Shown: positions 27,485 to 63,807 of the stretch, in pieces | Layout of the letters: each line of letters opens with the position of its first letter | Numbering within the stretch: position 1 is the first letter of the stretch | Assembly (NCBI GenBank): GCA_905182855.1 | Contig: CAJJDA010000009.1 | Coordinates: 189,309 to 253,308 of the forward strand | Origin: a gamma proteobacterium HTCC2207 | GTDB taxonomy: Bacteria; Pseudomonadota; Gammaproteobacteria; Pseudomonadales; Porticoccaceae | Direction of reading: 5' to 3' | Length of the DNA stretch: 64,000 nucleotides | Translations under genes and position numbers: made by a program | Notes under the pieces: model-generated | What the model saw: the letters and a program-made list of their open reading frames with translations, nothing else | What the model was told of the DNA's origin: nothing | Databases searched by the model: none

Positions 27485-27805
27485 ATGCCCACAGTCACCT
27501 ACATACAAGCCAATGGCAGCAGCCAAGAAATTGATCTCGCACCTGGCACTAGCCTGATGCAAGGCGCCATCGACAACCTAGTGGAGGGTATACTTGCCGA
27601 ATGCGGGGGCTCCTGTAGTTGTGCTACCTGCCACTGCTACATTGATGAGAGCTGGACCGATAAGCTTGAGCCACCGACTGACATGGAAGCCGACCTCCTG
27701 ACCTGTGTTACCGACCTCAGAGATGCTAGCCGTCTCTCCTGTCAAATTAACATTACTGAGGCCCTCGACGGTCTTGTAGTGCATTTACCTGAATCACAAT
27801 TTTAA
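27485..27805 (+). CDS. 2Fe-2S ferredoxin, putidaredoxin/adrenodoxin type
   Basis: Motifs ECGGSCSCATCHC and SRLSCQI. Confidence 0.93.
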   Translation: MPTVTYIQANGSSQEIDLAPGTSLMQGAIDNLVEGILAECGGSCSCATCHCYIDESWTDKLEPPTDMEADLLTCVTDLRDASRLSCQINITEALDGLVVHLPESQF

Positions 27806-28064
27806 CAGCCTCCTGTCACATTTCTGCAATAAGCCAGCTATCGCAAATAGTCATCCTACTTGTTCACACCGCAAGAAAGATGACTTAAAGACTTACGCTA
27901 CTATGCATAAAAAAATTATGGTGTCATTGTTTTTTAGTAGCTCACAGGCTGTCAAAATTCAGCGGCGCTTAGGCCTACTGCAACTCGCCTAAGAGGACAG
28001 AATATCAGCCGCTAAAAAAAAGACTCGCCGCATATCACTCAGGCTTTGCTGAGGGTTAGGCAAA

Positions 28065-28084
28065 AACCATCTTCTTTGTTTGTT
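28065..28084. promoter_or_regulatory. Putative operator, site 1 (AACCATCT-TCTT-TGTTTGTT), overlapping the -35 of TTGTTT-N16-TATAGT
   Basis: Matches the palindrome shared by six island promoter regions. Confidence 0.6.
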
Positions 28085-28146
28085 TTTTAATCGAAACAAG
28101 GTATAGTTTAAAACGCCTTCAACTAATAAATAAAAGGGGCATTTTA

Positions 28147-29118
28147 ATGCCATATCAAAAAGATTTTCTGCTCAAAGCCTACCGCTCGATGAAGACCATC
28201 CGAGAATTCGAAGAGCGCTGTGTCAAAGAGTTTGAGGGGGGTAATATTCCCGGTTTCGTCCATGTGTCAAATGGCCAAGAAGCCATTGCCGTTGCAGCCT
28301 GTATTGACCTCAGCGATAAAGATATCATCGGTAGCACCCACCGCGGGCACGGCCATTGCATTGCCAAAGGCTGTGACATTGGCGCCATGATGAAAGAAAT
28401 CATGGGTAGAGTTACCGGTCTTTGTAAAGGCAAAGGGGGCTCTATGCACATCGCCGATATAGACAAAGGGATGCTCGGTGCTAACGCCATTGTTGGAGGC
28501 GGTCCTCCTTTAGTGAATGGTGCTGCCCTAGCAGCCAAGACTCTAGGCACTAAAAATATCGCCCTCTCTTTTAATGGTGACGGAAGTGCCAATCAGGGGA
28601 CGGTAATGGAAGCCATGAATATGGCGGTTGTGTTGCAGCTACCCCATGTCTTTGTTTACGAAAACAATGGTTATGCCGAAGGCACTGCCGCTAACTATGG
28701 CTTGGGCTGCGACAGCCTGACCGATCGCAATGCCGGCTTTGGTATGCCAGCTGAGTGCATCGATGGCCTGGACTTCTTTGTCACCTATGAAGCGCTGAAA
28801 GTGGCGACCCAGCGTGCACGCGATGGCGGTGGCCCGTCGGCAATAGAAGCCATGTGCGTGCGCTTTGATGGTCACTTTATTGGCGACCCACAACTTTACC
28901 GCGGCACCAATGAGATTAAAGATGCACGTAAGACTCAGGATTGCTTAAAGATCTTCCGTCAGCGCGTTGTCGCCGAAGGCTGGCTAACAGCCGCAACCAT
29001 GAATGCAATTGATAAAGAAATCATGGTCGAAATAGAAAAAGCTGTTGCCGACGCTCTAACTGCGCCGCACCCAGATCCCGCCACGGACCTTATGTCCGAC
29101 GTCTACTGCTCTTACTAA
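28147..29118 (+). CDS. acoA: TPP-dependent dehydrogenase E1 alpha (acetoin dehydrogenase AcoA-like)
   Basis: Motifs IPGFVH, STHRGHGH, GKGGSMH, GDG...NN TPP motif, RFDGHFIGDPQ. Confidence 0.85.
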   Translation: MPYQKDFLLKAYRSMKTIREFEERCVKEFEGGNIPGFVHVSNGQEAIAVAACIDLSDKDIIGSTHRGHGHCIAKGCDIGAMMKEIMGRVTGLCKGKGGSMHIADIDKGMLGANAIVGGGPPLVNGAALAAKTLGTKNIALSFNGDGSANQGTVMEAMNMAVVLQLPHVFVYENNGYAEGTAANYGLGCDSLTDRNAGFGMPAECIDGLDFFVTYEALKVATQRARDGGGPSAIEAMCVRFDGHFIGDPQLYRGTNEIKDARKTQDCLKIFRQRVVAEGWLTAATMNAIDKEIMVEIEKAVADALTAPHPDPATDLMSDVYCSY

Positions 29119-29128
29119 TGGTGTCAAA

Positions 29129-30175
29129 ATGACTAACTATTCTAATGATCCAAAAATAGCCGGCAAGTCCTCATTAAAAACTATCCGCGAAGCGATAAAC
29201 GACGCACTCAGAGCTGAGATGCGCCGTGACCCGACTGTTATCGTACTCGGTGAAGAAGTGTCTGGTGGCGCGGGCTGCCCCGGAGAGGACGATGCCTACG
29301 GCGGTGTTTTCGGCGTTACCAAAGGTCTTATGCCTGAGTTTGGCCGCGAGAGAGTTATCGACACCCCCATCAGTGAAGCCGCCATTATTGGCGCTGCTGC
29401 CGGTGCCGCCAACAATGGTCTACGGCCGGTAGCAGAACTCATGTTCTTCGACTTTATCGGCGTCTCTTTTGATCAGATTTTTAACCAGACTGCTAAGTTT
29501 CGCTACATGTTCGGCGGCAAATCAAAGACTCCTCTGGTTATTCGAGCTACAGTCGGTGGCGGTTGGCGCGCTGGTGCTCAGCACTCCAGTATGCTGCATT
29601 CAATCGTTACCCATATAGCCGGATTAAAAGTGGTAATGCCCAGCAATGCCTACGATGCAAAAGGTTTAATGGTGCAGGCCATTCGCGATGACGATCCGAT
29701 TATTTTTCTCGAACACAAAACAATGTACGACAATACCTGTGAAGTGCCGGACGAGCAGTATGCCATTCCCTTTGGGGAAGCTGCATTCCCTAGGCACGGC
29801 ACAGACGTTACTATTGTTGCCATATCCAATATGGTCACTCGAGCTATTGAAGCGGCCGACATCCTGGCTAAAGAAGGAATCAGCTGCGAAGTAATAGATC
29901 CTCGCACCGTTTCTCCATTGGATGATGAAGCTATTCTTGAGAGCGTTGAAGTGACCGGCAGATTAGTGGTCGTAGACGAGGGTAATCCGCGCTGCGGGCT
30001 TGCCTCCGACATCGCTGGCATAGTCGCCGAGAAAGGTTTTCACAGCCTGATAGCGCCAATTCGCACTGTCACTGCGCCGCACACACCGGTTCCCTTTGCA
30101 CCAGAATTAGAAGATGCCTACATACCCAGTGTAGAAAAAATTCTTGCTGCAGTCCGCGAAGTAATAGGAGGTTAG
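29129..30175 (+). CDS. acoB: E1 beta (AcoB-like)
   Basis: Motifs DTPISE, RPVAELMF, AQHS, EHK, PHTPVPFAPELE. Confidence 0.85.
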   Translation: MTNYSNDPKIAGKSSLKTIREAINDALRAEMRRDPTVIVLGEEVSGGAGCPGEDDAYGGVFGVTKGLMPEFGRERVIDTPISEAAIIGAAAGAANNGLRPVAELMFFDFIGVSFDQIFNQTAKFRYMFGGKSKTPLVIRATVGGGWRAGAQHSSMLHSIVTHIAGLKVVMPSNAYDAKGLMVQAIRDDDPIIFLEHKTMYDNTCEVPDEQYAIPFGEAAFPRHGTDVTIVAISNMVTRAIEAADILAKEGISCEVIDPRTVSPLDDEAILESVEVTGRLVVVDEGNPRCGLASDIAGIVAEKGFHSLIAPIRTVTAPHTPVPFAPELEDAYIPSVEKILAAVREVIGG

Positions 30176-30177
30176 GC

Positions 30178-31911
30178 ATGACAGAAAACATCAAGGCAAT
30201 CAATATGCCCAAATGGGGCATGGAAATGTCAGAGGGCGATGTCACTGCCTGGCACGCCTCAATCGGTGATCAGGTTAGTGTCGGCGACGATTTAATCGAT
30301 GTCGAAACCAGCAAAATCGTCAACACAGTGACCTCTCCCGATAGTGGCATACTCAGAGCTATAGTGGCAGATCCTGGTGAGACCTGCGCTGTCGGGGACC
30401 TTCTGGGTGTGCTGGCATCTGCAGATACTAGCGATGAAGATATCAAGGCGTTTATAGCCAGCCGCTCAGCGGGAACAGTCGCCAAGGAGGCAGAACCTGC
30501 GCCAATAGTGCAGGAGCCCGCCCCTGCGGTGGCTGAGCCTGTACAAGAAATTGCGCTGGCGGCGCCAATTGCTCCAATTGCTGCAATGGTGTCGAGTGAA
30601 GCCACAGCTATGGCGACCCTCGCCGACGGCGACGATGACAGTGCTGTAGCTGCCTCTCCGGTAGCACGTCGTCTCGCAGAAGAGTACGGTGTGAATTTAA
30701 ATAATATTTCGGGTACAGGCCGCCATGGACGCGTATCTAAAAGCGACCTTGAATCTGCGATTACCGACGCTGGTGGCGTTTTAGCGGGCGCCAGCTCGGT
30801 TCGAGCTCCCGGCCTCACCGATTCGAAATCACTGGCCGACGGCGTCGATGATAGCAATGTCTCGGCCTCCCCAGTAGCCCGTCGTTTGGCAATAGAGTAT
30901 GGCGTGAATCTGAACAATATCTCGGGCACGGGCCGCCATGGTCGCGTATCCAAGAGCGATCTTGAAAATGCAGTAACTGCCGCCGGTGGAGAATTAATCC
31001 GTACTAACAACACGGCCAGTACTGTAGTGAAACTGGGTGATGATAGCCATATTAAAGCCACGCCAGTGGCACGGAGGTTGGCAGAAGAGTTAGGGGTCAA
31101 CTTATTAGAATGCCGCGTAAGTGGTGATCGAGGTCGGGTCTGTAAAGCCGATGTGGAAGCCGTTGCCGCTCGCAAAAATAAGCCGTTAGCGCCATCCATC
31201 GACACCTCTGGTTCAATCACTATTGAAAGTCCTTTTGAGTCTGAGGTTTTGACCGGCATGCGCAAGACTATCGCCGGTCGCCTGCAATCCTCTAAGCAAA
31301 CTGCACCCCATTTTCGCGTCCAAATCGATGCCGAAATAGACGCCCTTCTAGCGGTGCGAAAGCAAATAAATGCTGCAAACTCAGCGGCTAAAGTCTCGGT
31401 GAATGATTTTATGGTCAAGGCCTGCGCTGCGGCACTAATGCAAGTCCCTGCAATCAATGTTCAATTCGATGGTGAACAGGTCAAATATTTCAAAGATGCA
31501 GACATTTCCGTTGCCGTTGCCGTTGCCGATGGTTTGATAACACCTATAGTCAGCAGCGCTAATCACAAGGGTTTAATAGCCATCTCTAATGAAGTGCGTG
31601 ATCTGGCGACCAGAGCGAAAATTAACCGCCTCAAGCCTGCTGAATTTGTGGGCGGCAGTTTTTGTATTTCTAATCTCGGCATGTTTGGCATCAAACAATT
31701 TGACGCCATCATTAACCCCCCTCAGGGTGCCATTCTGGCCGTGGGTACCGGAGAACAGCGTCCAGTGGTGAAGGAGGGTCAACTCAGTATTGCGACTGTG
31801 GTCAGCCTGACTTTATCCAGCGATCATCGCATTATTGATGGCGCCGTAGCCGCACAATTTATGTCCATCCTCAAGGGCTATTTGGAACAACCAGCAACCA
31901 TGCTGGGTTAA
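30178..31911 (+). CDS. acoC: Dihydrolipoamide acyltransferase E2 (AcoC-like): one lipoyl domain, three E3/E1-binding domains, catalytic domain
   Basis: Lipoyl site VETSKI, three (S/T)PVARRLA..GR repeats, DHRIIDG. Confidence 0.85.
   Translation: MTENIKAINMPKWGMEMSEGDVTAWHASIGDQVSVGDDLIDVETSKIVNTVTSPDSGILRAIVADPGETCAVGDLLGVLASADTSDEDIKAFIASRSAGTVAKEAEPAPIVQEPAPAVAEPVQEIALAAPIAPIAAMVSSEATAMATLADGDDDSAVAASPVARRLAEEYGVNLNNISGTGRHGRVSKSDLESAITDAGGVLAGASSVRAPGLTDSKSLADGVDDSNVSASPVARRLAIEYGVNLNNISGTGRHGRVSKSDLENAVTAAGGELIRTNNTASTVVKLGDDSHIKATPVARRLAEELGVNLLECRVSGDRGRVCKADVEAVAARKNKPLAPSIDTSGSITIESPFESEVLTGMRKTIAGRLQSSKQTAPHFRVQIDAEIDALLAVRKQINAANSAAKVSVNDFMVKACAAALMQVPAINVQFDGEQVKYFKDADISVAVAVADGLITPIVSSANHKGLIAISNEVRDLATRAKINRLKPAEFVGGSFCISNLGMFGIKQFDAIINPPQGAILAVGTGEQRPVVKEGQLSIATVVSLTLSSDHRIIDGAVAAQFMSILKGYLEQPATMLG
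30619..30990 (+). repeat. Internal tandem duplication (period 213 bp) of the peripheral subunit-binding domain
   Basis: Near-identical ASPVARRLAxEYGVNLNNISGTGRHGRVSKSDLE units starting near 30619 and 30832. Confidence 0.9.
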
Positions 31912-31914
31912 GGA

Positions 31915-33312
31915 GTGGACATGCAACAGTATGATCTAATGATAGTTGGCGGCGGCCCAGGTGGCTATGTTGCAGCTATCCGTGGCGCTCAGTTAGGCTT
32001 CAAGACAGCATTGGTAGAACGAGAGCACCTCGGGGGTGTCTGCTTAAATTGGGGCTGTATACCCACCAAAGCCATGCTGCGGGGTGCCGATATCGCACAC
32101 ACGCTAAAAGAGGCCGAGCACTTCGGTTTCACCATTGATAATGTTAGCTTTGATATCAATAAACTGGTGCAGCACAGTCGTTCGGTGGCGAGCAAACTCA
32201 GTCAGGGTGTTGCCTACCTGATGCAAAAAAACAATATTACTGTGATTGACGGCACAGCTAGTCTGGCCGACAAATGTCGCCTCGAAGTGACCCACAATGG
32301 CGCAGTAACCCAATATAATGCCACGCATATTATCCTCGCTACTGGCGCTCGCGCTCGCAACCTGCCTAATATCGAGATCGACGGTGACTTTATCTGGGGT
32401 GCTCGAGAAGCCATGACACCCACTGCCCTGCCAAACAACCTTCTGGTTATTGGCGCTGGCGCTATTGGTGTCGAATTCGCCAGTATGTATAACGACTTAG
32501 GGACCAATGTCACTCTCGTTGAAGCAGAGACACGCATCACCCCTGCCGAAGACATTGAGATCTCACAGATCGCGGAAAAATCCTTTCAGAAGCGAGGTAT
32601 TAAAGTTCTTACCAACAGTCTGGTTGAATCCGTTGAGCGCGCTGGCACGGGCAGTGTGGCGAGAATTAACGGCCCCGACGGTAAACAGGAACTGGCGTTT
32701 GACCAAGTGATTTTAGCCGTGGGAATCAGAGGCAATATTGAGAGTCTAGGCCTGGAGAAACATGGAGTCCATATGGACAAGGGCTTTTTAATTGCCGACC
32801 AATTTGGCAAGACCAACCTAGCTGGTTTATACGCTGTTGGGGACGTCGCAGGGCCACCTTGGCTAGCCCATAAAGCGAGCCATGAAGCCGTTATCTGTGT
32901 CGAAAAAATAGCCGGTGTTGACGGAGTCAAGCCGCTAAATAAAGATCGCGTGCCGGGCTGTACCTATTGCCGCCCGCAAATAGCCAGTGTCGGACTCACG
33001 GAGGCGCAGGCTGCCGCGGCAGGCCACAGTACCAGAGTGGGCCGCTTTAATCTTAGTGCCAACGGTAAAGCTCTGGCCATTAATGAAGGCGAAGGAATGG
33101 TCAAAACAGTTTTCGATAGCAACACCGGCGAACTACTTGGCGCCCACATGATTGGTGCCGAAGTCACAGAACAGATTCAGGGGTTTGGTATCGCGCAACA
33201 GCTTGAGGCTACAGAGCAGGAACTAGCCCACACTATTTACGCACACCCCACAGTATCTGAAAGCATGCATGAGTCTGTATTAGACAGTCTCGGGCTTTCA
33301 ATTCATCAGTAG
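31915..33312 (+). CDS. lpdA: Dihydrolipoamide dehydrogenase E3
   Basis: Motifs GGGPGG, GGVCLNWGCIPTK, HPTVSE. Confidence 0.92.
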   Translation: MDMQQYDLMIVGGGPGGYVAAIRGAQLGFKTALVEREHLGGVCLNWGCIPTKAMLRGADIAHTLKEAEHFGFTIDNVSFDINKLVQHSRSVASKLSQGVAYLMQKNNITVIDGTASLADKCRLEVTHNGAVTQYNATHIILATGARARNLPNIEIDGDFIWGAREAMTPTALPNNLLVIGAGAIGVEFASMYNDLGTNVTLVEAETRITPAEDIEISQIAEKSFQKRGIKVLTNSLVESVERAGTGSVARINGPDGKQELAFDQVILAVGIRGNIESLGLEKHGVHMDKGFLIADQFGKTNLAGLYAVGDVAGPPWLAHKASHEAVICVEKIAGVDGVKPLNKDRVPGCTYCRPQIASVGLTEAQAAAAGHSTRVGRFNLSANGKALAINEGEGMVKTVFDSNTGELLGAHMIGAEVTEQIQGFGIAQQLEATEQELAHTIYAHPTVSESMHESVLDSLGLSIHQ

Positions 33313-33321: not shown

Positions 33322-33753
33322 ATGACCAGTCAAGTTCCATTACACGAGGGTCTATTTACCTGGCCTGCTACTAAACCTCAGTTGCTGGGCAGCCGCTGTA
33401 GCCAGTGCGCCGAAGCCGCTTTTCCAGCACAGCCCGACTGTCGTAGCTGCGGCTCGCGTGACACAACGATTGTCGAGTTGGGGGATCATGGCACGTTGTG
33501 GACCTGGACCATACAGACATTTTTGCCCAAGCATCCCTATCTCAGCGGCGAAACCGCAGACACATTTCGCCCTTACGGCGTTGGCTATGTGGAAATGCCA
33601 GGAGGTGTGCGCGTTGAAGCTCGCCTCAAACCTAATAGCCCGGACCAGCTGAAAATCGGTATGCCTATGCAATTAGATATTATCCCGTTCTGTACTGACG
33701 AAAACGGCGACCAGAGAATGACCTTTGCGTTTAGTGCAGTGGCGGAGGTATAA
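33322..33753 (+). CDS. DUF35 Zn-ribbon/OB-fold protein (thiolase partner)
   Basis: CxxC...CxxC followed by GTLWTWT and an OB fold; adjacent to a thiolase. Confidence 0.88.
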   Translation: MTSQVPLHEGLFTWPATKPQLLGSRCSQCAEAAFPAQPDCRSCGSRDTTIVELGDHGTLWTWTIQTFLPKHPYLSGETADTFRPYGVGYVEMPGGVRVEARLKPNSPDQLKIGMPMQLDIIPFCTDENGDQRMTFAFSAVAEV

Positions 33754-33756
33754 ATT

Positions 33757-34899
33757 ATGGATGTAGCAATTATAGGTATCGGACTTCACCGCTTTGGCCG
33801 CTCACCAGACATGTCAGGGATGCAACAGGGGGCTTCTGCTGTGCGCGCCGCTCTTGCAGATGCCGGTCTCGCCTGGAAGGATATGCAATTTGCCTATGGC
33901 GGCAGTCAAGACGGCGGTAACGCCGATGCGTTAGTTAATGAGCTCGGCCTAACTGGCCTACAGTTTACCAACATATGGAATGGCTGCGCCACCGGCGGAA
34001 GTTCATTACACGCCGCCTATACCGCGATTAAATCTGGCGAATACGATATGGGTGTGGTTGTCGGTTTCGACAAGCATCCCCGCGGAGCCTTCAACCCTCA
34101 ACCCAAAGAATGGGGCTTGGATGAATGGTACGGCGAAACCGGATTAATGCTCACCACGCAGTTTTTTGCTCTCAAAACTCAGCGCTATATGTACGATCAT
34201 GGCATTACTGAAGACGCGTTGATTCGAGTATCTGAGAAAGCCTTTAACAATGGCTCAATTACACCGACTGCATGGCGCCAGCAGGCCTTGAGCTATGAAG
34301 AGATTGCCAGCTCGACCATGGTAAGCGATCCGCTTAGGAAATATATGTTCTGTAGTCCGGCCGAAGGTGGTGCGGCGCTGATTGTTTGTAATGCCGACAA
34401 AGCACATCAGTACTGTAGTAATCCATTATTTATAAAAGCTGCGGCAGTGCGAACTCGGCATTACGGTAGTTTTGAGGTGTTTTCGCCGTCGCAGGCGATG
34501 ACTGTGGCCGATGCACCGACAGTGACGGCTTCAAAGGCGGCTTTTGAGTTAGCCGGTATTGGCCCCGAAGATGTCGACGTGATTCAATTGCAGGATACCG
34601 ACAGCGGTACCGAAATTATGCATATGGCCGAGAACGGATTCTGCGAGCATGGGGAGCAAGAGAAACTCCTGCGCGAAGGTGCCACACAAATAGATGGCCG
34701 CATGCCGGTTAATACTGATGGTGGCTGTCTCGCTAATGGCGAACCCGTAGGCGCATCTGGGCTTCGACAGATCTACGAAGTCTGTGTGCAGCTTCGCGGT
34801 GAGGGCGGCGCAAGACAGGTCGCAAATAACCCTAAAGTGGGATACACCCATGTCTATGGTGCCCCTGGTATTAGTGGCGTCAATATTATTACCAAATAA
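33757..34899 (+). CDS. SCP2-type thiolase-like protein with a non-canonical active site
   Basis: Motifs NGCATGG, NTDGGCLANGEPVGASG, THVYGAPG. Confidence 0.88.
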   Translation: MDVAIIGIGLHRFGRSPDMSGMQQGASAVRAALADAGLAWKDMQFAYGGSQDGGNADALVNELGLTGLQFTNIWNGCATGGSSLHAAYTAIKSGEYDMGVVVGFDKHPRGAFNPQPKEWGLDEWYGETGLMLTTQFFALKTQRYMYDHGITEDALIRVSEKAFNNGSITPTAWRQQALSYEEIASSTMVSDPLRKYMFCSPAEGGAALIVCNADKAHQYCSNPLFIKAAAVRTRHYGSFEVFSPSQAMTVADAPTVTASKAAFELAGIGPEDVDVIQLQDTDSGTEIMHMAENGFCEHGEQEKLLREGATQIDGRMPVNTDGGCLANGEPVGASGLRQIYEVCVQLRGEGGARQVANNPKVGYTHVYGAPGISGVNIITK

Positions 34900-36311: not shown

Positions 36312-36401
36312 ACTATTTGAGTCGTGCCCCTGCTATTGCAACCCGACGGCTTTTAGATTCTTCGATAGCCCAGACGGGTATGTCGACCTATCTCTGTAGC
36401 A

Positions 36402-36752
36402 ATGACTGACAACAATGTAATTTACGAGTATTTTATGGCAACCACTACACATACCCTATTCCCCGCAGAAGACTTAGCCGATAACGAAAGTGTAGCTGTA
36501 ATGGTCGAGGGCAATGACATCCTCGTCTGTAAAGCTAATGGTAGCTATTACGCAGTAGCTAATAACTGCACTCACCAGAGAGCTAAGCTCGCAGGCGGTC
36601 GGATCAGAAACTGTTTCCTATCCTGCCCACTGCATGGCGTGCGTTTTGACTTGCGCACAGGGGTCCCTCTTGGAGAGCTCACCCGAGTTGGCTTGAAGAC
36701 CTACCCCATTCGCTTAGCAGATGATGGTAATCTGCAGTTGGACATCGATTAG
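36402..36752 (+). CDS. Rieske-type ferredoxin (start possibly 36435)
   Basis: Motifs CTHQ...CPLHG and FDLRTG. Confidence 0.9.
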   Translation: MTDNNVIYEYFMATTTHTLFPAEDLADNESVAVMVEGNDILVCKANGSYYAVANNCTHQRAKLAGGRIRNCFLSCPLHGVRFDLRTGVPLGELTRVGLKTYPIRLADDGNLQLDID

Positions 36753-39253: not shown

Positions 39254-39257
39254 AAGA

Positions 39258-54223: not shown

Positions 54224-56437
54224 ATGAAATCTCAAAATAGCTTTAAAAAATCACTGCTACCCGCTCTGATTTCCGTGTTGGTACTGCCAATATGCGCCCA
54301 AGGGGCCTATGGTGCTACGACGCTGGAAGAAATTGTTGTTACAGCGCGTAAGCGCCAAGAGTCTATCCAAGACGTCCCTGTTGCGGTTACCGCATTAAGC
54401 CCTGGGCAATTAGAGCGTGGATCTATTACCAGCTCGCTCGATCTAGCCAAGTTGGCGCCAAACGTACAACTTCATGAAACCGCTATTGGATCAGAATCAC
54501 TGAGTGCTTCCATCCGTGGGTTGAGCTACGACGATATTGAAAAATCGATCGAACCAACTGTGGGCGTGTCTATAGACGGTGTCTTTTTAGCCAGTAATTC
54601 CGGCGGTGTTTTCGACATGTTTGATGTCGAATCGGTTGAAGTTCTGCGCGGCCCTCAGGGCACGCTATTTGGTCGTAATACGATTGGTGGTGTAATCAGC
54701 GTCAATAGAACGCAGCCAACTGGCGAGTGGGGCGGTAAGGTAGAAGTCACCTCTGGCGACGAAAACATGACCGACGTCAAGGCCATCCTTAATATGCCTT
54801 TAGGCGCCAATGGTGGCATCAAAATAGCCGTCAAGGACAAGCAATCAGATTCCCATGTCTACAATACGACACTGAAAATGCATCGTCCAATGAAGGACTC
54901 TGAGACCTTTACTCTGTCGGCCAAATATAACTTCACCGACAATACCTCTGCCCAATTTACCTATGATTCATATGATCATAACACCACTGCGGCCGATAAT
55001 GTGTTTGTAGCGACCGGGTTTCTGGCATCGATTGGGTTCGGAGATGGCGCCATAGCGTCGGAAAAAAATGACTGGAAGACCTCTCCTCAGTTGAACCCGC
55101 TAACAGCGACCTTAGAAGGTGACAATTACACCGCTAAAGTGACCCATACTGGCGAGAACTACGAGATCAAATATATTATGGGCATAATGGACTACGAAGA
55201 AGAAGTCCATGAGTCTTCGTGGGGTATTAACGGGGTATTCTTCCCAGTTGATAGAAACCAGGAGTTCAAACAGACGTCTCACGAAGTTCAGTTTATTTCT
55301 GACTTTGATGGTCCTATGAACGTTGTAGCTGGTGTCTACATGATGGAAGCTGACTCTTGGATCACGTCAGGGCCTGCAGTGCAGTTCACCGCAGACCACA
55401 ACGTAGAGACTACCGCGGTGTTTGGTGAAATCAACTATGATCTCAGCGACGTCTGGTCCTTAACCGTAGGTGCTAGATACACCGAAGAAGATAAAGACCT
55501 GGATTCGCGATCTTGGGTGACAGGCAGCAGCAATGTACCCCGCCTTTCGAATAGCAGAGATCCATCGCTTTTACTCAATGCCGGTACGCCAAGCTTTAGC
55601 GACGACAACATTTCTTACAGAGTGGTTCTGCAGAGAGAATTTGAACTGGGCATGATGTATGCCTCGTACTCCACTGGCTTTCGCAGTGGGGGTTTCTTTA
55701 ACCGCGGGTCCACTGACTCCGAATTGGCGCCGTTTCAATCCGAAGAAGTGGAAAGTATGGAAATCGGTATGCGCAGCAACCCCACTGACAATTCGCAGTT
55801 GAACCTAACCTACTTCATGGCCGATTATAGCGACAAGCAAACTACGATCATTACCGCCGGTAATGACCCAGTCTGTGGTAAATCAAATGAATTTGTAGCA
55901 GGCGTAACCTGTTCATTTGTTCGCAACGCAGGTGAAGTTAGCATGGAAGGCTTAGAGCTTGAGTATGTATTGATGCCGACTGAAGAACTGACCCTAAGAG
56001 CCACCGTCGGCACCTTGGATACAGATATTGACGAGTTCAATTATAATGGCGTCGATATATCCAACAAAGCTCACATGCTGTATGCGCCCGAGTTAACTGC
56101 GTATTTTGGTGCGGAGCACACATCTGATCTTGGCGGCGGCACACTCACCATCAATGCAGGTTGGAGCTACAAGGACGACATGTACACCCAAGCGGACTGG
56201 TCCACCTACGATCCAGCAACGGGTCCAGAGACCGTTATTGAGAGTTATGAGAGCTTAGATCTGTCAGCCACCTACCTTAAGGACATGGGCGCTGGGACTC
56301 TCAAGGTACGGCTCTACGGTACCGACATTCTAGAAGAGGGCAACAGAGTCAGTCGTCGATATGATGCAGGCGCCTTTGCTTGGGCAGAACTTGCTGCACG
56401 TCGTCAGTTTGGTGTGACCGTAGGATTTGAGTTCTAA
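54224..56437 (+). CDS. TonB-dependent receptor
   Basis: Signal peptide, LEEIVVTARKR TonB box, EVLRGPQGTLFGRNT plug, C-terminal Phe. Confidence 0.95.
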   Translation: MKSQNSFKKSLLPALISVLVLPICAQGAYGATTLEEIVVTARKRQESIQDVPVAVTALSPGQLERGSITSSLDLAKLAPNVQLHETAIGSESLSASIRGLSYDDIEKSIEPTVGVSIDGVFLASNSGGVFDMFDVESVEVLRGPQGTLFGRNTIGGVISVNRTQPTGEWGGKVEVTSGDENMTDVKAILNMPLGANGGIKIAVKDKQSDSHVYNTTLKMHRPMKDSETFTLSAKYNFTDNTSAQFTYDSYDHNTTAADNVFVATGFLASIGFGDGAIASEKNDWKTSPQLNPLTATLEGDNYTAKVTHTGENYEIKYIMGIMDYEEEVHESSWGINGVFFPVDRNQEFKQTSHEVQFISDFDGPMNVVAGVYMMEADSWITSGPAVQFTADHNVETTAVFGEINYDLSDVWSLTVGARYTEEDKDLDSRSWVTGSSNVPRLSNSRDPSLLLNAGTPSFSDDNISYRVVLQREFELGMMYASYSTGFRSGGFFNRGSTDSELAPFQSEEVESMEIGMRSNPTDNSQLNLTYFMADYSDKQTTIITAGNDPVCGKSNEFVAGVTCSFVRNAGEVSMEGLELEYVLMPTEELTLRATVGTLDTDIDEFNYNGVDISNKAHMLYAPELTAYFGAEHTSDLGGGTLTINAGWSYKDDMYTQADWSTYDPATGPETVIESYESLDLSATYLKDMGAGTLKVRLYGTDILEEGNRVSRRYDAGAFAWAELAARRQFGVTVGFEF

Positions 56438-56722: not shown

Positions 56723-57490
56723 TCAAAAGCCCATTTCTGTCGCGGTTGGAATCCGACGAAGAGTTTGACCACCTGAAATATCCAACATCCGGCCGGTCAT
56801 AAATGACTCATCAGACAGTAGCCACAGCGCTGCATTGGCCATATCATCAGTGGACGGCAATCTTCCCAGGGGTATCTCATTGGTAAATGCCTGTTCAATA
56901 GCCGGCATTGCAAGAAAACCTGCCGTCATAGCGCTGGGGGTAAAGCCAGGAGACAGCGAATTGACACGAATATTTTGCGCACCGTACTCAACGGCCGCTA
57001 TACGCACGATATGATCTGCGCCACTCTTGGTACCCGCGTAAGCCGCAAGCCCTGGAGGCGCCAATAGAGCCGTCTGTGAGGAGGTTGTTACCACCGAGCC
57101 ACCCTCGGTCATGCGCGCAGTCATATGCTTGATAAACAGCGTCGTGCCAATTAGGTGAACATCGCAATTCTGTTGCAATACCTCACGACTGATATCGGCA
57201 ATCGCTGAGGAGGTTTCGATACCCGCGAAATTAATCGCGCCATCGAGCTTGCCATAGTTTGAGATAGCGGCCTCAGCCAATGCTGCCAATTGCTGTTCAT
57301 TGGTAATATCGCAACCGATCGACACAGCGTCAATACTATCGGCAATAGCCTGAACCCTATCAAGTCTGCGAGCAGCCAATACTAGTTTAGCACCCTCCTC
57401 GCTGCAACGCCGCGCTGTTGCGGCGCCCATGCTGCGCTCATCTGACGCGCCCAAAATAACGATTACTTTGCCGTCTAATCTACCTGCCAT
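56723..57490 (-). CDS. Short-chain dehydrogenase/reductase (atypical GASDERSMG cofactor loop)
   Basis: NFAG, YAGTK, RVNSLSPG. Confidence 0.87.
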   Translation of the reverse strand: MAGRLDGKVIVILGASDERSMGAATARRCSEEGAKLVLAARRLDRVQAIADSIDAVSIGCDITNEQQLAALAEAAISNYGKLDGAINFAGIETSSAIADISREVLQQNCDVHLIGTTLFIKHMTARMTEGGSVVTTSSQTALLAPPGLAAYAGTKSGADHIVRIAAVEYGAQNIRVNSLSPGFTPSAMTAGFLAMPAIEQAFTNEIPLGRLPSTDDMANAALWLLSDESFMTGRMLDISGGQTLRRIPTATEMGF

Positions 57491-57534
57491 ATCTGTACCT
57501 CTTTAAACTCGTTAATATTAGTGACTGACAGCAA

Positions 57535-58551
57535 TTAAATTTTAACCAATTGCTTGCCAAAATTGTGACCCGAAAAAAGGCCCGCTAAAGCAGCAGGACA
57601 TTGCTCTATCCCCTCTAGCACATGCTCTTTGACTAGAATTTTTCCATCATCAACCCATTGCTTTAATTGCGTTATTGCCTCGGGGTAACGTTCGACATGA
57701 TCGAGCACGATAAACCCTTCCATATGGGCCCGGCGAATCACCAGCTGCATATAATTTTTTGGCCCCGGCGGCAATGCTTTGGTTTGATAACCGCTAGAAA
57801 TACCGCCGCAGAGAACCACCCGTGCATGGTTAGACAAATTCACAAGGGCCGAATCGAGGATTTCTCCACCCACATTATCAAAAAAGACATTGATGCTGTT
57901 TTTGCACAACTGGCTCATGCGCTCATCGACCGATTCCGACTTGTAGTCGATCACGGCATCGTAGCCAAGCTCATCGACCAACCACCGGCACTTGGCCTGA
58001 CCTCCCGCGATACCCACAACATGACAACCCATCAACTTAGCAATCTGGCCCACAGTAGATCCTGTTGCCCCAGCGGCACCAGAAATCACTACCGTATCAC
58101 CGGCCTTTGGCGCGCCAATATCCAGCAGCCCAAAGTACGCAGTAAGGCCCGTAAGACCATAAATATGCAGTGGATAAGACATTGGTATGCCGTCGGGTAT
58201 TTTGGCCACAGGAAATAACCCAGTGCCATCACTGATGGCATACTCCTGCCAGCCAAAACCGCCCTGCACTCGCTCTCCAACATTATAATCACTGTGTTTG
58301 CTTGCAATGACTTCACCAACCGCCATAGAGCGCATCACTTCACCAATGGCAACGGGCGGCACGTAGCTGCGAACATCGTTTAGCCATCCGCGCTGGGCGG
58401 GTTCAAATGAAAGGTAGTGATTCTTAACCAGAAACTCGCCATCCGCTAAGTCGCGAACAGGTTCAGTCTCGAAGTTAAAATGCTCCTCACTGGCGGTTGT
58501 TTCCGGACGTGACTTTAATGTCCATTTTTTGTTGCTTAACGGTGCTGTCAT
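57535..58551 (-). CDS. NADP-dependent ene-reductase (4)
   Basis: Motifs SFEPAQRGW, SGAAGATG, FFDNVGG, GKQLVKI. Confidence 0.9.
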   Translation of the reverse strand: MTAPLSNKKWTLKSRPETTASEEHFNFETEPVRDLADGEFLVKNHYLSFEPAQRGWLNDVRSYVPPVAIGEVMRSMAVGEVIASKHSDYNVGERVQGGFGWQEYAISDGTGLFPVAKIPDGIPMSYPLHIYGLTGLTAYFGLLDIGAPKAGDTVVISGAAGATGSTVGQIAKLMGCHVVGIAGGQAKCRWLVDELGYDAVIDYKSESVDERMSQLCKNSINVFFDNVGGEILDSALVNLSNHARVVLCGGISSGYQTKALPPGPKNYMQLVIRRAHMEGFIVLDHVERYPEAITQLKQWVDDGKILVKEHVLEGIEQCPAALAGLFSGHNFGKQLVKI

Positions 58552-58721: not shown

Positions 58722-60493
58722 TTAATCAGCCACCTCGACGCGAATCAGCTGACCATGGTTTTTATTCGGTAACCAGACCGTAATGCGGTCGGCGCTATTA
58801 TCCACTACGACCTTGCGTGCGTCATAAGGCACTGGCATTAGGTACTTAACCACCTTTCCCGTGGCAGGGTCGAGTCGCAGCAGACGGTCGGAGCCAGTGC
58901 TGGATATCCAAATTTTTCCAGTGCGGTCTGGACGCGCATAATAAGGCGAAATATGCCTCGGCTGCAGCGGGTACTCAGTAATCTTGTCACTGTTCAAGTC
59001 GATCATGGCTACATTGTCAGCAAAAAATTCGGTAAACCAGAAATGATTGTTGGTATCTCTATAACCCCGCCTTGGGTAGGCATTGGGCGTTGGTGTGGGT
59101 ACCAACCGCACATTGCCCTCGCCATCTGAACGCGCAATGGCAGAGGCCTCAGGGGCGGTACAAAGGAAGTTGCCTTGAGCATCCTGATCCATCATGTAGC
59201 AGTAGTTTAACTGACCGAAACGATTGGGGTCGCTGGGCAATGGCTTGTCGTCAAACAGCATAATACCCTCGCCTAATTCACCCGTCTCAATATCTAAGCG
59301 GAAAGCATGCTCATGGCGTATTGGCCATCGGGAAAGGTGGTAATACCGGTGGCCCAGAGACCTTTTTCATTTGCCCGTACTGGCCCGAGAAAGGGATTTT
59401 TCCATACCACAGGCAAGTCAAAGGTCTGCCAGGTTTCAGTGGCAGGTGTAAACGCCGCATGTTTATTACCACCGACCCCTACCCAGACCGTATCACTGCC
59501 GTCGACCTGTATATCCTGAACGCCAACAATCCGACTGAGACCCTCAGCTGCCTCTGGTAAAAAGTTGGGCGCGGGCCATTCGGAGAAGGCCCCCGTGCGG
59601 GGGTCGAGCTTACCAATAAAGTCCCAGCCGGTATTGCCGTACCAGACATTGCCTTTTGAATCCACATCCAAATCATGGATCACACTGGGCTGGCGGGGAA
59701 TCGGAAATACGGTAACGGTAGCATTGGTACCTTCACCAGAGGGCCGCGGCAAGGTCTTTAGCGGATAGTCCCACTGCGACTCTCCATCACTCAAATTGAC
59801 GGTGGCCAGAAACTCCGCAATGTCAGCGGCTTGACGACCGTACCAGACGAGGCCTTCAAGAGGCTGCGGCTTTGAAACTACCTGAATGCGACTTGCCGAG
59901 GCATGGTCTGTTTCATAGGTTTTCATACGCTGAATAACACTGAGAAATTGTTCAGCCGAATAGCCTGACCGCGCCACCCTTTCGAGTGAATGGCAGAAAC
60001 CACAGTTGACCATATTACGGACCAATAAATCTTTTTGAGCTTCGCTCCCAGGAAAGCTTTTAACCCAGTCCAGCGACGTCAGCTGAGAGGCGAGGCGCAG
60101 TGGATCAGTAACGGCGATTAACGACAGATCGAGCCGTGCCGAATTGTTATCCTTAATGACAACAATTTGTGGCGCATCAGACACCGACATTTGATAACCC
60201 GCGGCCCTCACGCTAATCACATATCTACCGGAGGTAACTCGGTCTCGTTGAAATTGGTATTGACCCAAGGCATCCGAGGTGACCGCTGTCAATATTGTCT
60301 CGTCGACAGCTCGCAACATTACCACCACGCCTTCCATAGGACCCTCTTCACTCGACAAAACAGCTCCGTGCAGGGCGATACTAGCCGACTGAGCATGCTG
60401 TTTGTCAGTGCAACCAGAACCCGCCAGCAATAGGATTAACACAAGATGCCTGATACCCCAACCTTGGGAGATTAACTTAATACCCTTAAACAA
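58722..60493 (-). CDS. Putative exported lipoprotein: carboxypeptidase-regulatory-like domain + c-type heme + Vgb-like beta-propeller (frameshift near 59320)
   Basis: Lipobox-like LLAGSGC; G.V...EGPMEGVVV...TSDALGQYQF; CGFCH; repeats such as DSKGNVWY and GKLDPRTGAFSEW. The two ORFs join through RHEHAFRLDIETGELGEG. Confidence 0.75.
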
Positions 60494-60757: not shown

Positions 60758-62101
60758 CTACGTTAACGCTTCAGTATTGATGGTATCGGTATCGACATAA
60801 TCATTGAGTAACTCGTGGAACCGCTGCACGCGCTTTTCCTGGTAGGTAAGAAAGCAGCTGTTAAAGCCACGAGAATTCAGTCCCTGCTGCTGACTGGCGC
60901 CTATGCTCAGGTCCTGGTCTGCAACAAACCCCACTGACTGCCCATCACCGTAGACACTATGCCGATGTTCGGCCCATTCCATAGGCACAGGACCAATAGG
61001 CGTCACAACTTCTTTCATCCCCTCGACCGGCGGAACGATTACCCAATGGTGAAAGATGCATTTTTGCGGGTCGGTTGGATGAGGTTCTGTGCTCATTATC
61101 TGACATTGTTCCGGCGACATGGTAATCGTGAGATTGGGGAACAGCGTGCAGTGAAAATAATCCACCAACTGCTGGTCGCTCATGTTGACGTAGTTACTGT
61201 ACCCTCGCTCAGGGCCCAAACGTCGCTTGGCCTCAATAATGGCCTCTCGTATATCCGCCGACCGGCCTTCAAAATCTGCTGGATCAAGATCCCAGGCGCG
61301 CGCTACATCATCCAGAGGACTGGGCACCTCTCCCGACTGAAAAGAAGGATTCCGAGTAGAGGCTTGATGCCCCTTCATCCACATGGAGTTATGTCCACTT
61401 TCATACATTTCGAACAACGTGTCAGGTAGACCGTCGTTGATGATCGTCGACAGTTCCGGGTGAATAGTCGGCAAGTGATAACTCTCATTAAAGTTGTCAC
61501 GTATGATTTTCCAATTAAAATCGGCGTCCGCCGACAGATACATCACTCGAATCCAGTTATCCAGACCGTAGTCCTTTAATCGTTCAGGTAATGGTGCCAG
61601 CCATTCCAATAATGGTTTTACGTCAGTATCCATACAATAGAAAACAAAAGGGCCCCATGTCTCACAGCGCACTTCACTGAGACTAACCTTGCCGCAGGGA
61701 TCGCCTCCAGGGAAGTCATCCGGATCCTGCACGTGCACCAGTAGACCATCTGAAGAATATTGCCAGCCGTGATAACCGCAAGTAATCCTTTCACTGCCAC
61801 CTATGTCGCCCAGAATCAATCGATTACCGCGGTGCGGACAGGTATTATAAAAAGCCTTAATCGAGTCATCCGCTTGACGAACCATAATGACCGACTCTTT
61901 GCCGAGATTGTGTCGAACATAATCACCCTCTTGCTCAAACTCAGCGACCATAGCCCCAAGCAGCCAAACCCGCGGCCACAGATGCTCACTTTCTCGCTCC
62001 ATGAACGCAGTAGAAATATAACGCTCCGCGGTGATAGCATCGCCCCGTAACGGAAGATCAAATTCCGCGGAATATCGCGAACTCCCAGATTCTGCCGCCA
62101 T
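60758..62101 (-). CDS. Rieske non-heme iron oxygenase alpha subunit (3)
   Basis: CPH...CGYHGW; ESYHLPTIH. Confidence 0.92.
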   Translation of the reverse strand: MAAESGSSRYSAEFDLPLRGDAITAERYISTAFMERESEHLWPRVWLLGAMVAEFEQEGDYVRHNLGKESVIMVRQADDSIKAFYNTCPHRGNRLILGDIGGSERITCGYHGWQYSSDGLLVHVQDPDDFPGGDPCGKVSLSEVRCETWGPFVFYCMDTDVKPLLEWLAPLPERLKDYGLDNWIRVMYLSADADFNWKIIRDNFNESYHLPTIHPELSTIINDGLPDTLFEMYESGHNSMWMKGHQASTRNPSFQSGEVPSPLDDVARAWDLDPADFEGRSADIREAIIEAKRRLGPERGYSNYVNMSDQQLVDYFHCTLFPNLTITMSPEQCQIMSTEPHPTDPQKCIFHHWVIVPPVEGMKEVVTPIGPVPMEWAEHRHSVYGDGQSVGFVADQDLSIGASQQQGLNSRGFNSCFLTYQEKRVQRFHELLNDYVDTDTINTEALT

Positions 62102-62219
62102 GATATAGCCCCTGTGTTGCCGCCCCGTCTGAGAGAGCGTTGATTAATAATTTGCGTATTTATCGGTCTGAGGCGATCAAACCCTTAAAATACTTCGAGT
62201 TGACGCTGAGCTCAATACA

Positions 62220-62981
62220 TTACCCAGCAATAAGGCCGCCATCGACGACTAGTTCTGCACCAGTCACATAACTGGCCTCATCAGACGCAAGAAATAGAAC
62301 ACAGTTAGCCACTTCCTCTGGGTATCCCATCCGACCGAATGGCACCATAGTGCCCAGCTGTGCATGCCCCTCTGGATTATCCCGCCGCGCATCGTTTTGA
62401 ATGTTAGTTTCAATCAAACCGGGATGCAGGGAATTACAACGCACACCGTCCGCAGCATGCTCAATGGCAACGCATTTACTCAATATTTGTACGCCGGCTT
62501 TAGCCATGCCATAGACCGACACAGCTGCCATAGCACGCATCCCGGCCACCGATGACATGTTGACAATAGAACCGCCGCCAGAGTCTTTCATCGCCGGTAC
62601 TGCTTTCTGGCAACCGAGAAAAACACTGCGAAGATTAACGTCCATCTGCATATTATAATCTGCCTGCGTATACTCATTAATCGGCTTGAGCACGGCAATA
62701 CCTGCATTGTTGACGAGGACATCCAGTCCCCCAAAGCGCTCCACAGTCGCATCAATAACTTCCTGCCAACGCTGCTCATCAACAACATTTTGTTCCATAG
62801 TCAGCACTTCGGCACCCATAGCAGTTAGCTCTTTTTCAACTGCGGCCAACCCGACCATATCAATGTCGGTGATAACCAACTTGGCGCCTTCTTGAGCAAA
62901 GCGCATAACCGTAGAATAACCCAGACCTGGATTAGAGGCTGCGCCGGTAATAATGGCAATCTTATTTAGCATTCTAGACAT
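62220..62981 (-). CDS. Short-chain dehydrogenase/reductase
   Basis: Motifs TGAASNPGLG, NNAG, YGMAK. Confidence 0.9.
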   Translation of the reverse strand: MSRMLNKIAIITGAASNPGLGYSTVMRFAQEGAKLVITDIDMVGLAAVEKELTAMGAEVLTMEQNVVDEQRWQEVIDATVERFGGLDVLVNNAGIAVLKPINEYTQADYNMQMDVNLRSVFLGCQKAVPAMKDSGGGSIVNMSSVAGMRAMAAVSVYGMAKAGVQILSKCVAIEHAADGVRCNSLHPGLIETNIQNDARRDNPEGHAQLGTMVPFGRMGYPEEVANCVLFLASDEASYVTGAELVVDGGLIAG

Positions 62982-63024
62982 CGAAATTTTCCTTATAATT
63001 AGGTTTAAACACAGGATGTATTAG

Positions 63025-63807
63025 TTATATAGCGTTCCAGCCCCCATCAACTTCAAGCAGACTTCCAGTGCTAAAAGACGATAGATCAGATGCGAGAAAC
63101 ATTGCGCCATTGGCAACTTCTTCAGGGGTACCAAGGCGGTTCATAGCATGCTTTTTTGCTAACACCGATAGGTCATCAACTAGGCTGACTACCAAAGGCG
63201 TCGCGACATTACCCGGGCAGATCGCGTTAATGCGAATGTCGCGATTAGCATATTCTACCGCTACCGTGCGGGTCAAACCTGCCACGGCAAATTTACTAGT
63301 GACGTAGGGCGAGGCATTGGGATACGTATTGCGGCTGGTGGCAGAGGCCATATTGACAATGCGTCCACGGCCCTGTTTGAGCATTTGACGAATCTCAGCC
63401 TGCATGCAAAGCCAGACCCCTTTTAAGTTAACCGCCATTACACGATCAAATTCAGCCTCACTAACCTCATGAAATTCCTGCAATGGTGTCGCTATGCCGG
63501 CATTGTTAACCGCGATATCAAGACGACCAAAACGCCTCACAATTGCCTCAAGCATTGCATTAACATCAGAAGAATGAGTGACATCATTAAGCAATCCTAG
63601 GACTTCAGTACCGGAGTTCTCTAACTCTTGGACCACTTTATCTAAGCCTTCTCGAGAGATATCAGTGACCACCAGTTTGGCCCCCGCATTGGCGAAGGCC
63701 ACCGCACAGGAATAGCCTAAGCCCGCACCTGCACCTGTTACAAGGACCACCTGGTCTGTGAAGTCAATTGCCATAGTCGGATTGATCGTCTTTTTAGTAT
63801 AAGTCAT
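63025..63807 (-). CDS. Short-chain dehydrogenase/reductase
   Basis: Motifs TGAGAGLG, NNAG, YVTSK. Confidence 0.9.
   Translation of the reverse strand: MTYTKKTINPTMAIDFTDQVVLVTGAGAGLGYSCAVAFANAGAKLVVTDISREGLDKVVQELENSGTEVLGLLNDVTHSSDVNAMLEAIVRRFGRLDIAVNNAGIATPLQEFHEVSEAEFDRVMAVNLKGVWLCMQAEIRQMLKQGRGRIVNMASATSRNTYPNASPYVTSKFAVAGLTRTVAVEYANRDIRINAICPGNVATPLVVSLVDDLSVLAKKHAMNRLGTPEEVANGAMFLASDLSSFSTGSLLEVDGGWNAI

Follow-up and report, generated by a model that had tools for sequence, protein, structure and literature searches.

A flexible gene island of SAR92 bacteria that may serve the catabolism of carotenoid-derived fragments

Which compounds are taken up and degraded by the large catabolic gene block that some marine bacteria of the SAR92 clade (Porticoccaceae) carry next to a cytochrome c gene? 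The block was analyzed in a window of 64,000 nucleotides (the whole stretch of DNA under study, G000:C9:189309-253308) from the genome of gamma proteobacterium HTCC2207, an assembly of 1.64 Mb in 14 contigs that is 76% complete. A first-pass annotation of this DNA had proposed a coregulated island for norisoprenoids, apocarotenoids, or other cyclic terpenoids, extending over >36 kb and ~35 contiguous genes at 27485-63807. Its contiguity held, but its extent did not, as the block comprises ~41 kb and ~42 genes, with its left end at 27485 and its right end ~4.5 kb past the end of the window. On the comparisons presented here, we give a probability of about one half to the reading that it is a TetR-controlled flexible island for the uptake and catabolism of carotenoid-derived fragments (apocarotenoids and norisoprenoids) or of methyl-branched isoprenoid enones and acids much like them. 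Beta-ionone and beta-cyclocitral, which the first-pass annotation named as examples, are no more than candidates within that class.

The left flank, before 27485, consists of cox15 and a cytochrome c gene. Beyond the window end (locus L001), the block continues with a seventh short-chain dehydrogenase/reductase (SDR7, L001:146-946), a TetR gene (L001:1345-2052), an APH-type kinase (L001:2262-3290), and a third acyl-CoA dehydrogenase (ACAD3, L001:3290-4519), followed by the housekeeping genes lysS and prfB. In G016 and G019, these flanks enclose a fully colinear copy of the block at 65-94% protein identity, and G020 and G002 keep the same gene order up to their contig ends, in agreement with the proposal of one coinherited island with a common operator that is syntenic in relatives. 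In G024, G023, and G015, the site is empty and cox15-cytochrome c adjoins lysS-prfB with ~2 kb between them. Orthologs of the island cytochrome P450 occurred in 5 of the 25 genomes of the genus, and those of Rieske oxygenase alpha 1 and of the E1alpha subunit described below in those same genomes; the fragmented assembly G001 carries pieces of Rieske alpha 1, which brings island genes to 5-6 of 25. Island genes are hence inherited all-or-none among SAR92 genomes and, being present or absent at one chromosomal site between conserved flanks, the block is a flexible genomic island. No tRNA gene, integrase domain, or flanking repeats were found at its borders, and its GC content (0.46-0.52) is the same as that of the remainder of the genome.

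Only some strains of the abundant SAR92 clade carry the island. The P450 was found at 80-94% identity, with conserved neighbors, in 22 SAR92/Porticoccaceae records, including the cultured strains MOLA455 and SAR92 H921, and the order of the P450/SDR/ACAD operon is kept in ~20 SAR92 species. Module content varies: the ligase-ACAD module is missing from L039, L046, and L048, and a CarboxypepD_reg lipoprotein from the G016 and G020 islands. Among the islands compared, the APH gene is found only in G000, and TetR directly adjoins the ACAD gene in G016 and G019. In G008 (L026-L027, G008:C3:11903-51902), cox15-cytochrome c is followed by neither the island nor lysS, the alternative cargo including a different TonB-dependent receptor (TBDR), SDRs, and a CoA ligase (24-36% identity). 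This different gene content after cox15 suggests that the cytochrome c/lysS site may be a hot spot whose cargo differs between genomes.

The promoters of the island had been predicted to share one operator. The pattern AAACAA-N6-TTGTTT (at most one mismatch), which was defined after sites were seen and then searched genome-wide, has 10 matches in the 1.64-Mb genome; five lie in the island (2.5% of the genome), all of them in promoter regions. When spacers of 4-8 nt were allowed, six noncoding matches were observed versus 0.5 expected, the pattern being post hoc and the associated probability therefore optimistic. A perfect copy (51918..51935), conserved in 10 species, is located upstream of the ACAD/P450 operon. 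Operator-like inverted repeats were also found in the E1alpha promoter (28064..28081), upstream of a conserved TGTATAGT -10 box in a block kept in G016, G019, and G020; in the divergent region between medium-chain dehydrogenase/reductase 2 (MDR2) and a SnoaL gene (40365..40382), where the surrounding block is invariant in 11 species; and in the divergent ligase/TBDR region (53859..53876), by both the genome search and promoter alignment. The fifth operator lies beyond the window at window-equivalent position 68451. The divergent MDR3/SnoaL promoter has a variant palindrome (43076..43089), which reads CAAACATGTTTG in relatives, with one mismatch here, and is invariant in 13 other species.

Alignment of orthologous promoters (up to 14 species) revealed invariant blocks at MDR2/SnoaL, MDR3/SnoaL, ligase/TBDR, PimC, and E1alpha, each holding AAACA/TGTTT arms beside clear -35 and -10 boxes. 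The repeat recurs in other genera. In G290, a perfect copy separates the orthologous TetR gene from the E1alpha operon, and in G077 the repeat separates TetR from the DUF35 operon; G110, G155, and G063 carry it immediately upstream of TetR, and G147 carries it ahead of the DUF35 operon. Of these six genomes, five have it next to the TetR ortholog. The predicted operator was thus recovered at five promoters and conserved in orthologous promoters and in other genera. Because the same repeat adjoins orthologous TetR genes outside SAR92, the TetR protein from the right end of the island is likely the repressor of the whole block. PsrA-type TetR regulators recognize an AT-rich AAAC...GTTT-type inverted repeat before lipid-catabolic operons, and the island likewise pairs a TetR-family gene with such a repeat; unlike PsrA, the half-site spacing is AAACAA-N6-TTGTTT and the sites are concentrated in the island. 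The island TetR matches solved TetR proteins in the DNA-binding domain only. The operator emerged from the promoter alignment; searches of the intergenic regions for identical 10-mers in common, or for exact gapped palindromes with 5-6-nt arms, returned none. The tighter palindrome ACAAAC-N2-GTTTGT was weakly enriched (3 sites versus 1.1 expected). A AAGGATAA motif common to four intergenic regions was rejected, as it looks like ribosome-binding sites, a start codon following immediately in at least two of its four copies.

We next consider homologous systems outside SAR92, for which a sample of 300 genomes of the order was compared. Orthologs of the thiolase-fold protein of the island (55-86% identity) occurred in 14 of the 300 genomes, representing seven genera, and those of Rieske alpha 2 in only two. 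The gene order E1alpha-E1beta-E2-E3-DUF35-thiolase-Rieske alpha 1 is kept in G110, G155, G063, and G290, and in the first three this core operon continues with an SDR and then a CoA ligase; genes for Rieske alpha 1 and its ferredoxin come after the thiolase gene in all related operons. With core orthologs 47-86% identical and in the same order, and with an orthologous TetR gene and an AAACA-N8-TGTTT-type operator, the island shares the makeup of this putative regulon. A rearranged 26-kb cluster in G077 contains a TBDR, a GFA protein, three reductases, a Rieske ferredoxin, Rieske alpha 2, SnoaL, TetR divergent from DUF35-thiolase-Rieske alpha 1, ACAD3, ligase, PimCD, and an SDR, plus an unrelated P450, a KstD-like flavoenzyme, and an esterase.

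Could the block be no single pathway at all, but independent detoxifying or scavenging oxidoreductases that travel together through physical linkage only? The differences in module content between species (ligase-ACAD, lipoprotein, and APH) would fit, as would the failure of the island alone to yield a complete chemical route. We regard this as improbable, given the operator common to its promoters, the tight packing of the core operon, and the colocalization of the same gene families in at least four other families despite rearrangement.

The strongest pointer to a substrate comes from what precedes the core operon in relatives. In G110 (two tandem copies), G155, and G063, E1alpha is immediately preceded, on its own strand, by a gene encoding an RPE65-family carotenoid-cleavage oxygenase; judged by coordinates, G064 has the same arrangement, so that RPE65-headed core operons span three genera (G110, G155/G064, and G063). 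In G110, nine RPE65 genes are interleaved with island-gene homologs over 135 kb, three of them adjoining Rieske alpha 1-like genes; the homologs comprise TetR-ACAD, ABM-reductase, SnoaL, SDR-ThuA-PimC, Rieske alpha 1/2/3-like genes, and a P450. This region (G110:C1:3695000-3820000; L078, L067, L068, and L079-L082) holds 9 of the 12 RPE65-family genes of the complete 4.5-Mb genome, as well as hydratase genes, and represents the same system on a much larger scale. Gene content and order identify the SAR92 island as a compact form of a conserved, putatively TetR-controlled catabolic gene set of marine Cellvibrionales-type bacteria, and in larger genomes the homologous set is, to judge from its gene families, centered on enzymes of the carotenoid-cleavage type.

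The best solved match of the operon-linked RPE65 oxygenase is the apocarotenoid-15,15'-oxygenase (ACO) of Synechocystis (1e-57), followed by plant and archaeal carotenoid dioxygenases and then by lignostilbene dioxygenases (1e-46). Enzymes that cleave lignostilbene and isoeugenol also belong to the RPE65 family, the linked oxygenase has a match to LsdA at 1e-46, and Rieske oxygenases are typical of aromatic catabolism; the regulon might accordingly act on stilbenoid or lignin-derived aromatic alkenes, with the SAR92 island handling the resulting aromatic aldehydes and acids. This appears very unlikely, for the better match is an apocarotenoid oxygenase, neither the island nor the G077 cluster has a ring-cleavage dioxygenase, the enone reductases and the CYP101 enzyme suit nonaromatic substrates, and the setting is open-ocean plankton. 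The absence of extradiol and intradiol dioxygenases had already been noted in the first-pass annotation, and no such domain was found in our scan of the island.

In comparison with the ACO of Synechocystis (PDB 2biw), the RPE65 genes that match it best head the homologous operon in related genera, and the SAR92 island is without RPE65. Descriptions of known cleavage-oxygenase systems cover the cleavage step only and not the catabolism of the fragments. In Mycobacterium kansasii, a TetR/AcrR regulator controls an oxygenase locus for the breakdown of carotenoid, there the cell's own pigment (PMC9861118); the likeness lies in the TetR-type regulator, which is predicted for the island, and the difference in the pigment being endogenous.

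The island P450 (46695-47870) provides a second link to terpenoids. Its best solved relatives are CYP101J2 (E 1e-104), a cineole hydroxylase, and P450cam (1e-98), followed by CYP101D1/D2/D5 and CYP101C1. Identity to CYP101J2, counted by hand from the alignment, is ~43% over 371 residues, above the >40% over full length by which the P450 nomenclature rule defines the CYP101 family, and the alignment to P450cam is full-length. Assignment to this terpenoid-hydroxylating family is thus upheld, at the level of the family and not of the CYP101B subfamily (>55% identity to CYP101B1) to which the first-pass annotation likened it. A His aligns with Tyr96 of P450cam. The [2Fe-2S] ferredoxin (Fer2, PF00111) at the left end of the island (27485..27805, + strand), the first gene after cytochrome c, is likely the redox partner of the P450. 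The ferredoxin reductase for which a search of the flanks and genome had been proposed was found on contig C1, as a putidaredoxin-reductase-type FAD reductase; its ortholog adjoins the island ferredoxin in G020 and was not found in the island-less G024. The surrounding region (C1:22518-34798, L053:1964-14244) is a second small catabolic cluster, holding the only Reductase_C-type ferredoxin reductase of the genome together with a CoA ligase, two SDRs, two amidohydrolases, a ChrR-cupin protein, and a fourth Rieske alpha subunit that is 36% identical to Rieske alpha 2. The island therefore resembles known CYP101 systems (camCAB of P. putida, CYP101J2, and CYP101B1/C1/D of Novosphingobium) in having a P450, a [2Fe-2S] ferredoxin, and a putidaredoxin-reductase-type reductase. 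It differs from the P450cam system in the His for Tyr96 and in a reductase on another contig, and from the cam operon in its downstream genes, which include no Baeyer-Villiger monooxygenases; the homologous G077 cluster uses an unrelated P450.

Several observations weigh against a carotenoid-derived substrate. A carotenoid oxygenase had been proposed as a check; its outcome is positive only indirectly, in that the homologous operons of G110, G155/G064, and G063 have RPE65 directly upstream, but no RPE65 gene was found in the island, in the rest of this 76%-complete genome, or in G016 (94%) and G002 (96%). In having no cleavage oxygenase inside the cluster, the SAR92 island differs from the RPE65-linked regulon of those genomes. 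RPE65 does not track the island within SAR92, as G019 and G020 have it elsewhere in the genome and four island-less genomes have at least one copy, and in G290 and G147 the core operon is present and no RPE65 gene was found. In favor of the carotenoid reading, 10 of the 14 non-SAR92 genomes with the thiolase-fold ortholog carry RPE65 (mostly 4-12 copies), versus 75 of the 286 others, a co-occurrence that is suggestive only, because the genomes compared are related and the statistics overstate the association. The Rieske alpha subunits give no clue to the substrate, their solved matches being distant. Finally, domain scans of the island found no Baeyer-Villiger monooxygenase, enoyl-CoA hydratase, aldehyde dehydrogenase, or hydrolase, and because these four classes are missing, a complete route needs genes from elsewhere. 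Because the island has no cleavage oxygenase, SAR92 probably imports ready-made cleavage products.

Compounds other than carotenoid fragments can be weighed against the remaining enzymes. The four MDR double-bond reductases of the island (MDR1, 36755..37780, + strand; MDR2, at 39258, MDR3, 41964..42980, and MDR4, at 57535, all - strand) have the ADH_N_2 + ADH_zinc_N architecture of the PTGR1/LTB4-12-HD/CurA type. Their best models are curcumin reductase CurA (276-366 bits, cut-off 440) and LTB4-12-hydroxydehydrogenase/15-oxoprostaglandin reductase (B4_12hDH; 185-234 bits, cut-off 580), and by these scores they are relatives, not equivalogs, of CurA and B4_12hDH. Such reductases, together with many SDRs, a CoA ligase, and ACADs, recall animal eicosanoid catabolism. 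Oxylipins, polyunsaturated aldehydes, or prostaglandin-like diatom lipids would be degraded in the same way, with SDRs oxidizing hydroxyls, PTGR1-type reductases saturating enones, and the P450, CoA ligase, and ACADs finishing the chain; the APH-kinase + ACAD pair of the G000 island, which is presumably like LvaA/LvaC and ACAD10/11, would fit as well. We nevertheless hold oxylipins to be a rather unlikely substrate. The substrates of CYP101 enzymes are compact cyclic terpenoids, RPE65 oxygenases accompany the homologous operons, the APH gene is absent from the G016 and G019 islands, and straight chains leave three Rieske oxygenases, the NTF2-like proteins, and an extra E1/E2/E3 complex without an obvious role. 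The APH-family kinase gene overlaps ACAD3 by one base (L001:2262-4519, window-equivalent 66062-68319); we take this pair to resemble LvaA/LvaC and human ACAD10/11, which process 4-hydroxyacyl-CoAs.

Three Rieske alpha subunits, without beta subunits, are encoded in the island: alpha 1 (34929-36311), followed by a Rieske-type ferredoxin (36402-36752; both + strand, 34929..36752), alpha 2 (44608-45783, + strand), and alpha 3 (60758..62101, - strand). They match solved oxygenases at 1e-25 to 1e-27 only, over the N-terminal half. The combination of TetR, heteromeric ACADs, a thiolase-fold/DUF35 pair, Rieske oxygenases, NTF2-like proteins, P450, and SDRs resembles parts of steroid and abietane (dit) clusters, to which the KstD-like FAD enzyme of the G077 version can be added, and the closest solved P450s hydroxylate camphor and cineole. 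A different alicyclic or polycyclic terpenoid, such as monoterpenes, diterpenoid resin acids, sterols, or hopanoid fragments, might on these grounds be the substrate. We think this unlikely: there is no KshA-like match, the island is without extradiol dioxygenase, meta-cleavage hydrolase, or Baeyer-Villiger monooxygenase, ~42 genes are far below what a sterol pathway needs, and the recurrent adjacency of RPE65 would be left unexplained. Nor does the island resemble a steroid pathway in detail, as it gave no KshA match and contains no FAD_binding_2, extradiol dioxygenase, or MCP-hydrolase domain. The Rieske genes as a steroid 9alpha-hydroxylase were ruled out in the same way, no KshA being among the solved-structure matches.

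Acyl-CoA metabolism was found to be less conventional than anticipated. The PimC/PimD-like ACAD subunits (49534-51880, - strand) score 339 bits each, against cut-offs of 624 and 653 for TIGR03204 and TIGR03203, and by these scores form a heteromeric ACAD of the same broad type only. The DUF35 (OB/zinc-ribbon) protein and the thiolase-fold protein are encoded side by side (33322..34899, + strand). The latter retains the nucleophile Cys (NGCATG), but HDCF is changed to QDTD and GHP to GEP, changes that are kept in orthologs from at least six genomes outside SAR92; lacking the SCP2-type triad, it is, on its residues, not a canonical thiolase. Its nearest structures, BbsB and SCP2-thiolase, are both distant. 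The pairing of thiolase-fold and DUF35 proteins and the heteromeric ACAD pair are shared with Ltp2-ChsH2(DUF35), the FadE-type alpha2beta2 ACADs, and BbsAB, yet similarity of the thiolase-fold protein to BbsB, SCP2-thiolase, and Ltp2 is low (E 1e-40 to 1e-25), and QDTD/GEP, in which the catalytic His and the acid/base Cys are replaced and the nucleophile Cys is retained, is unlike both true thiolases and Ltp2. With no enoyl-CoA hydratase or aldehyde dehydrogenase, and a thiolase-fold protein without the catalytic His and second Cys, the island does not encode the complete beta-oxidation set that the first-pass annotation had assumed.

The core operon begins with a 2-oxoacid/acetoin-dehydrogenase-type complex (28147..33312, + strand), complete with E1alpha, E1beta, E2 (lipoyl, subunit-binding, and catalytic domains), and E3. 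E2 scores 458.7 bits and passes the NCBI pyruvate dehydrogenase (PDH) E2 model TIGR01349 (cut-off 445), and E1alpha, at 304.6 bits, is below the PDH equivalog cut-off of TIGR03182 (393.85). In Pfam scans, E2 (30178-31911) has one lipoyl and three E3-binding (peripheral subunit-binding) domains; the orthologous E2 of G110 spans only ~486 codons and probably has fewer E3-binding domains. An AceE-type PDH is present in G016, G019, G020, and G024, and among the genomes of the genus the E1alpha ortholog is confined to those bearing the island. The complex as the housekeeping PDH was therefore ruled out, and this distribution indicates that it is an accessory copy. The island thus has the full E1alpha, E1beta, E2, and E3 set of AcoABCL or an E1alpha-beta-type PDH, and homologs of its complex are alternately named acetoin or pyruvate dehydrogenase in databases. 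Unlike AcoABCL and PDH, it is additional to an AceE-type PDH and always operon-fused with DUF35, thiolase-fold, Rieske, and CoA ligase genes, and it differs further from PDH in its low E1alpha score and the three E3-binding domains of E2.

How might these parts act on carotenoid-derived fragments? SAR92 would live on fragments that light, algae, or other bacteria produce and would import them through the TBDR (54224..56437, + strand). The compound would be hydroxylated by the CYP101 P450, with the Fer2 ferredoxin and the reductase encoded elsewhere, and by the three Rieske monooxygenases with the Rieske ferredoxin. SDRs would convert alcohols to ketones, and the four PTGR/CurA-type reductases would saturate conjugated C=C bonds. 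The acid would be processed by the CoA ligase and heteromeric ACADs, through CoA activation and dehydrogenation, and C-C bonds would be cut by the noncanonical thiolase-fold/DUF35 pair and the extra E1/E2/E3 complex. More tentatively, and with considerable doubt, we suggest that the core operon encodes an undescribed, carboxylase-free dismantling of methyl-branched isoprenoid skeletons by a retro-aldol/acyloin scheme, with which, given the P450, enone reductases, and TBDR, SAR92 could live on carotenoid products of blooms. A retro-aldol or retro-Claisen cut by the thiolase-fold/DUF35 pair would yield a methyl ketone, a Rieske monooxygenase would hydroxylate it next to the carbonyl to give an acyloin, and the acetoin-dehydrogenase-like E1/E2/E3 complex would split the acyloin into an acyl-CoA and an aldehyde, which could re-enter via the CoA ligase. 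Such a scheme, though speculative, would explain the constant fusion of the core genes in one operon.

Carotenoids are among the most abundant lipids of the sunlit ocean, and their cleavage products (ionones, cyclocitral, loliolide, and apocarotenals) are released in blooms, to which SAR92 is a dominant responding clade. A literature search found no description of the island, nor of a bacterial pathway consuming apocarotenoids or carotenoid cleavage products. If an accessory island sets which strains can draw on carbon from pigments, this would account for niche differences among strains that are otherwise nearly identical, and the acyloin scheme, if true, would represent a new sink for pigment-derived dissolved organic carbon in phytoplankton blooms. 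New C-C cleavage chemistry may also reside in the core enzymes, namely in the rewired thiolase-fold protein, the extra E1/E2/E3 complex, and the divergent Rieske oxygenases. As the island occurs in two cultured strains, MOLA455 and H921, the hypothesis is directly testable.

Pfam and NCBIfam profile scans of the window and L001 proteins recovered every gene class that the first-pass annotation had listed, each where it had been placed; 27485-63807 contains six SDRs, three SnoaL_4 genes, four MDRs, and two ferredoxins. Downstream of MDR1, a GFA-domain protein, an SDR (38485-39253), and MDR2 are encoded on the - strand (38049..40307), followed on the + strand by SnoaL_4 (NTF2-like), ABM monooxygenase-like, and SnoaL_4 genes (40448..41704). 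Beyond MDR3, a + strand group (43240..46623) comprises SnoaL_4, SRPBCC, an ABM-like ORF, Rieske alpha 2, and a ThuA-like protein (45817-46623). The latter is the most conserved island protein (88-96% across SAR92 species versus 80-94% for the P450), and its homolog accompanies SDR3 and PimC homologs in G147, G063, G304, and G110. The P450, two SDRs, and the PimD-/PimC-like ACAD form one - strand operon (46695..51880), adjacent to an acyl-CoA ligase (52147..53727, - strand) that resembles medium-chain and cyclohexanecarboxylate-CoA ligases and scores below equivalog cut-offs. To the right of the TBDR, all on the - strand, are an SDR with MDR4 (56723..58551), a lipoprotein with CarboxypepD_reg and Vgb-lyase-like beta-propeller domains (58722..60493), Rieske alpha 3, and two SDRs (62220..63807).

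In this assembly, single-base indels break up at least four genes of the island, all of which are intact in relatives. The SDR at 38485-39253, frameshifted here, forms one 261-aa frame in G016 and G019, the split lipoprotein at 58722-60493 is a single 586-aa frame in G019, the ABM-like ORF (~44250-44560) has two 1-base insertions, and the N terminus of the P450 is also affected by an indel. Outside the island, a nadB-like L-aspartate oxidase (18877-20513) is split into two overlapping ORFs, FAD_binding_2 then Succ_DH_flav_C, and the match of a DegP/HtrA-like ORF (14386-15297) to the protease domain is limited to its C-terminal part. Because nadB, the DegP/HtrA ORF, and at least four island genes are broken, indel errors in the assembly are suggested, and sequencing error is the more likely cause of the split genes, rather than decay. 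Adjoining nadB and the rpoE-rseA-rseB locus is an ORF (20510-20926) encoding a CptA-like membrane protein of a toxin family (Pfam Cpta_toxin).

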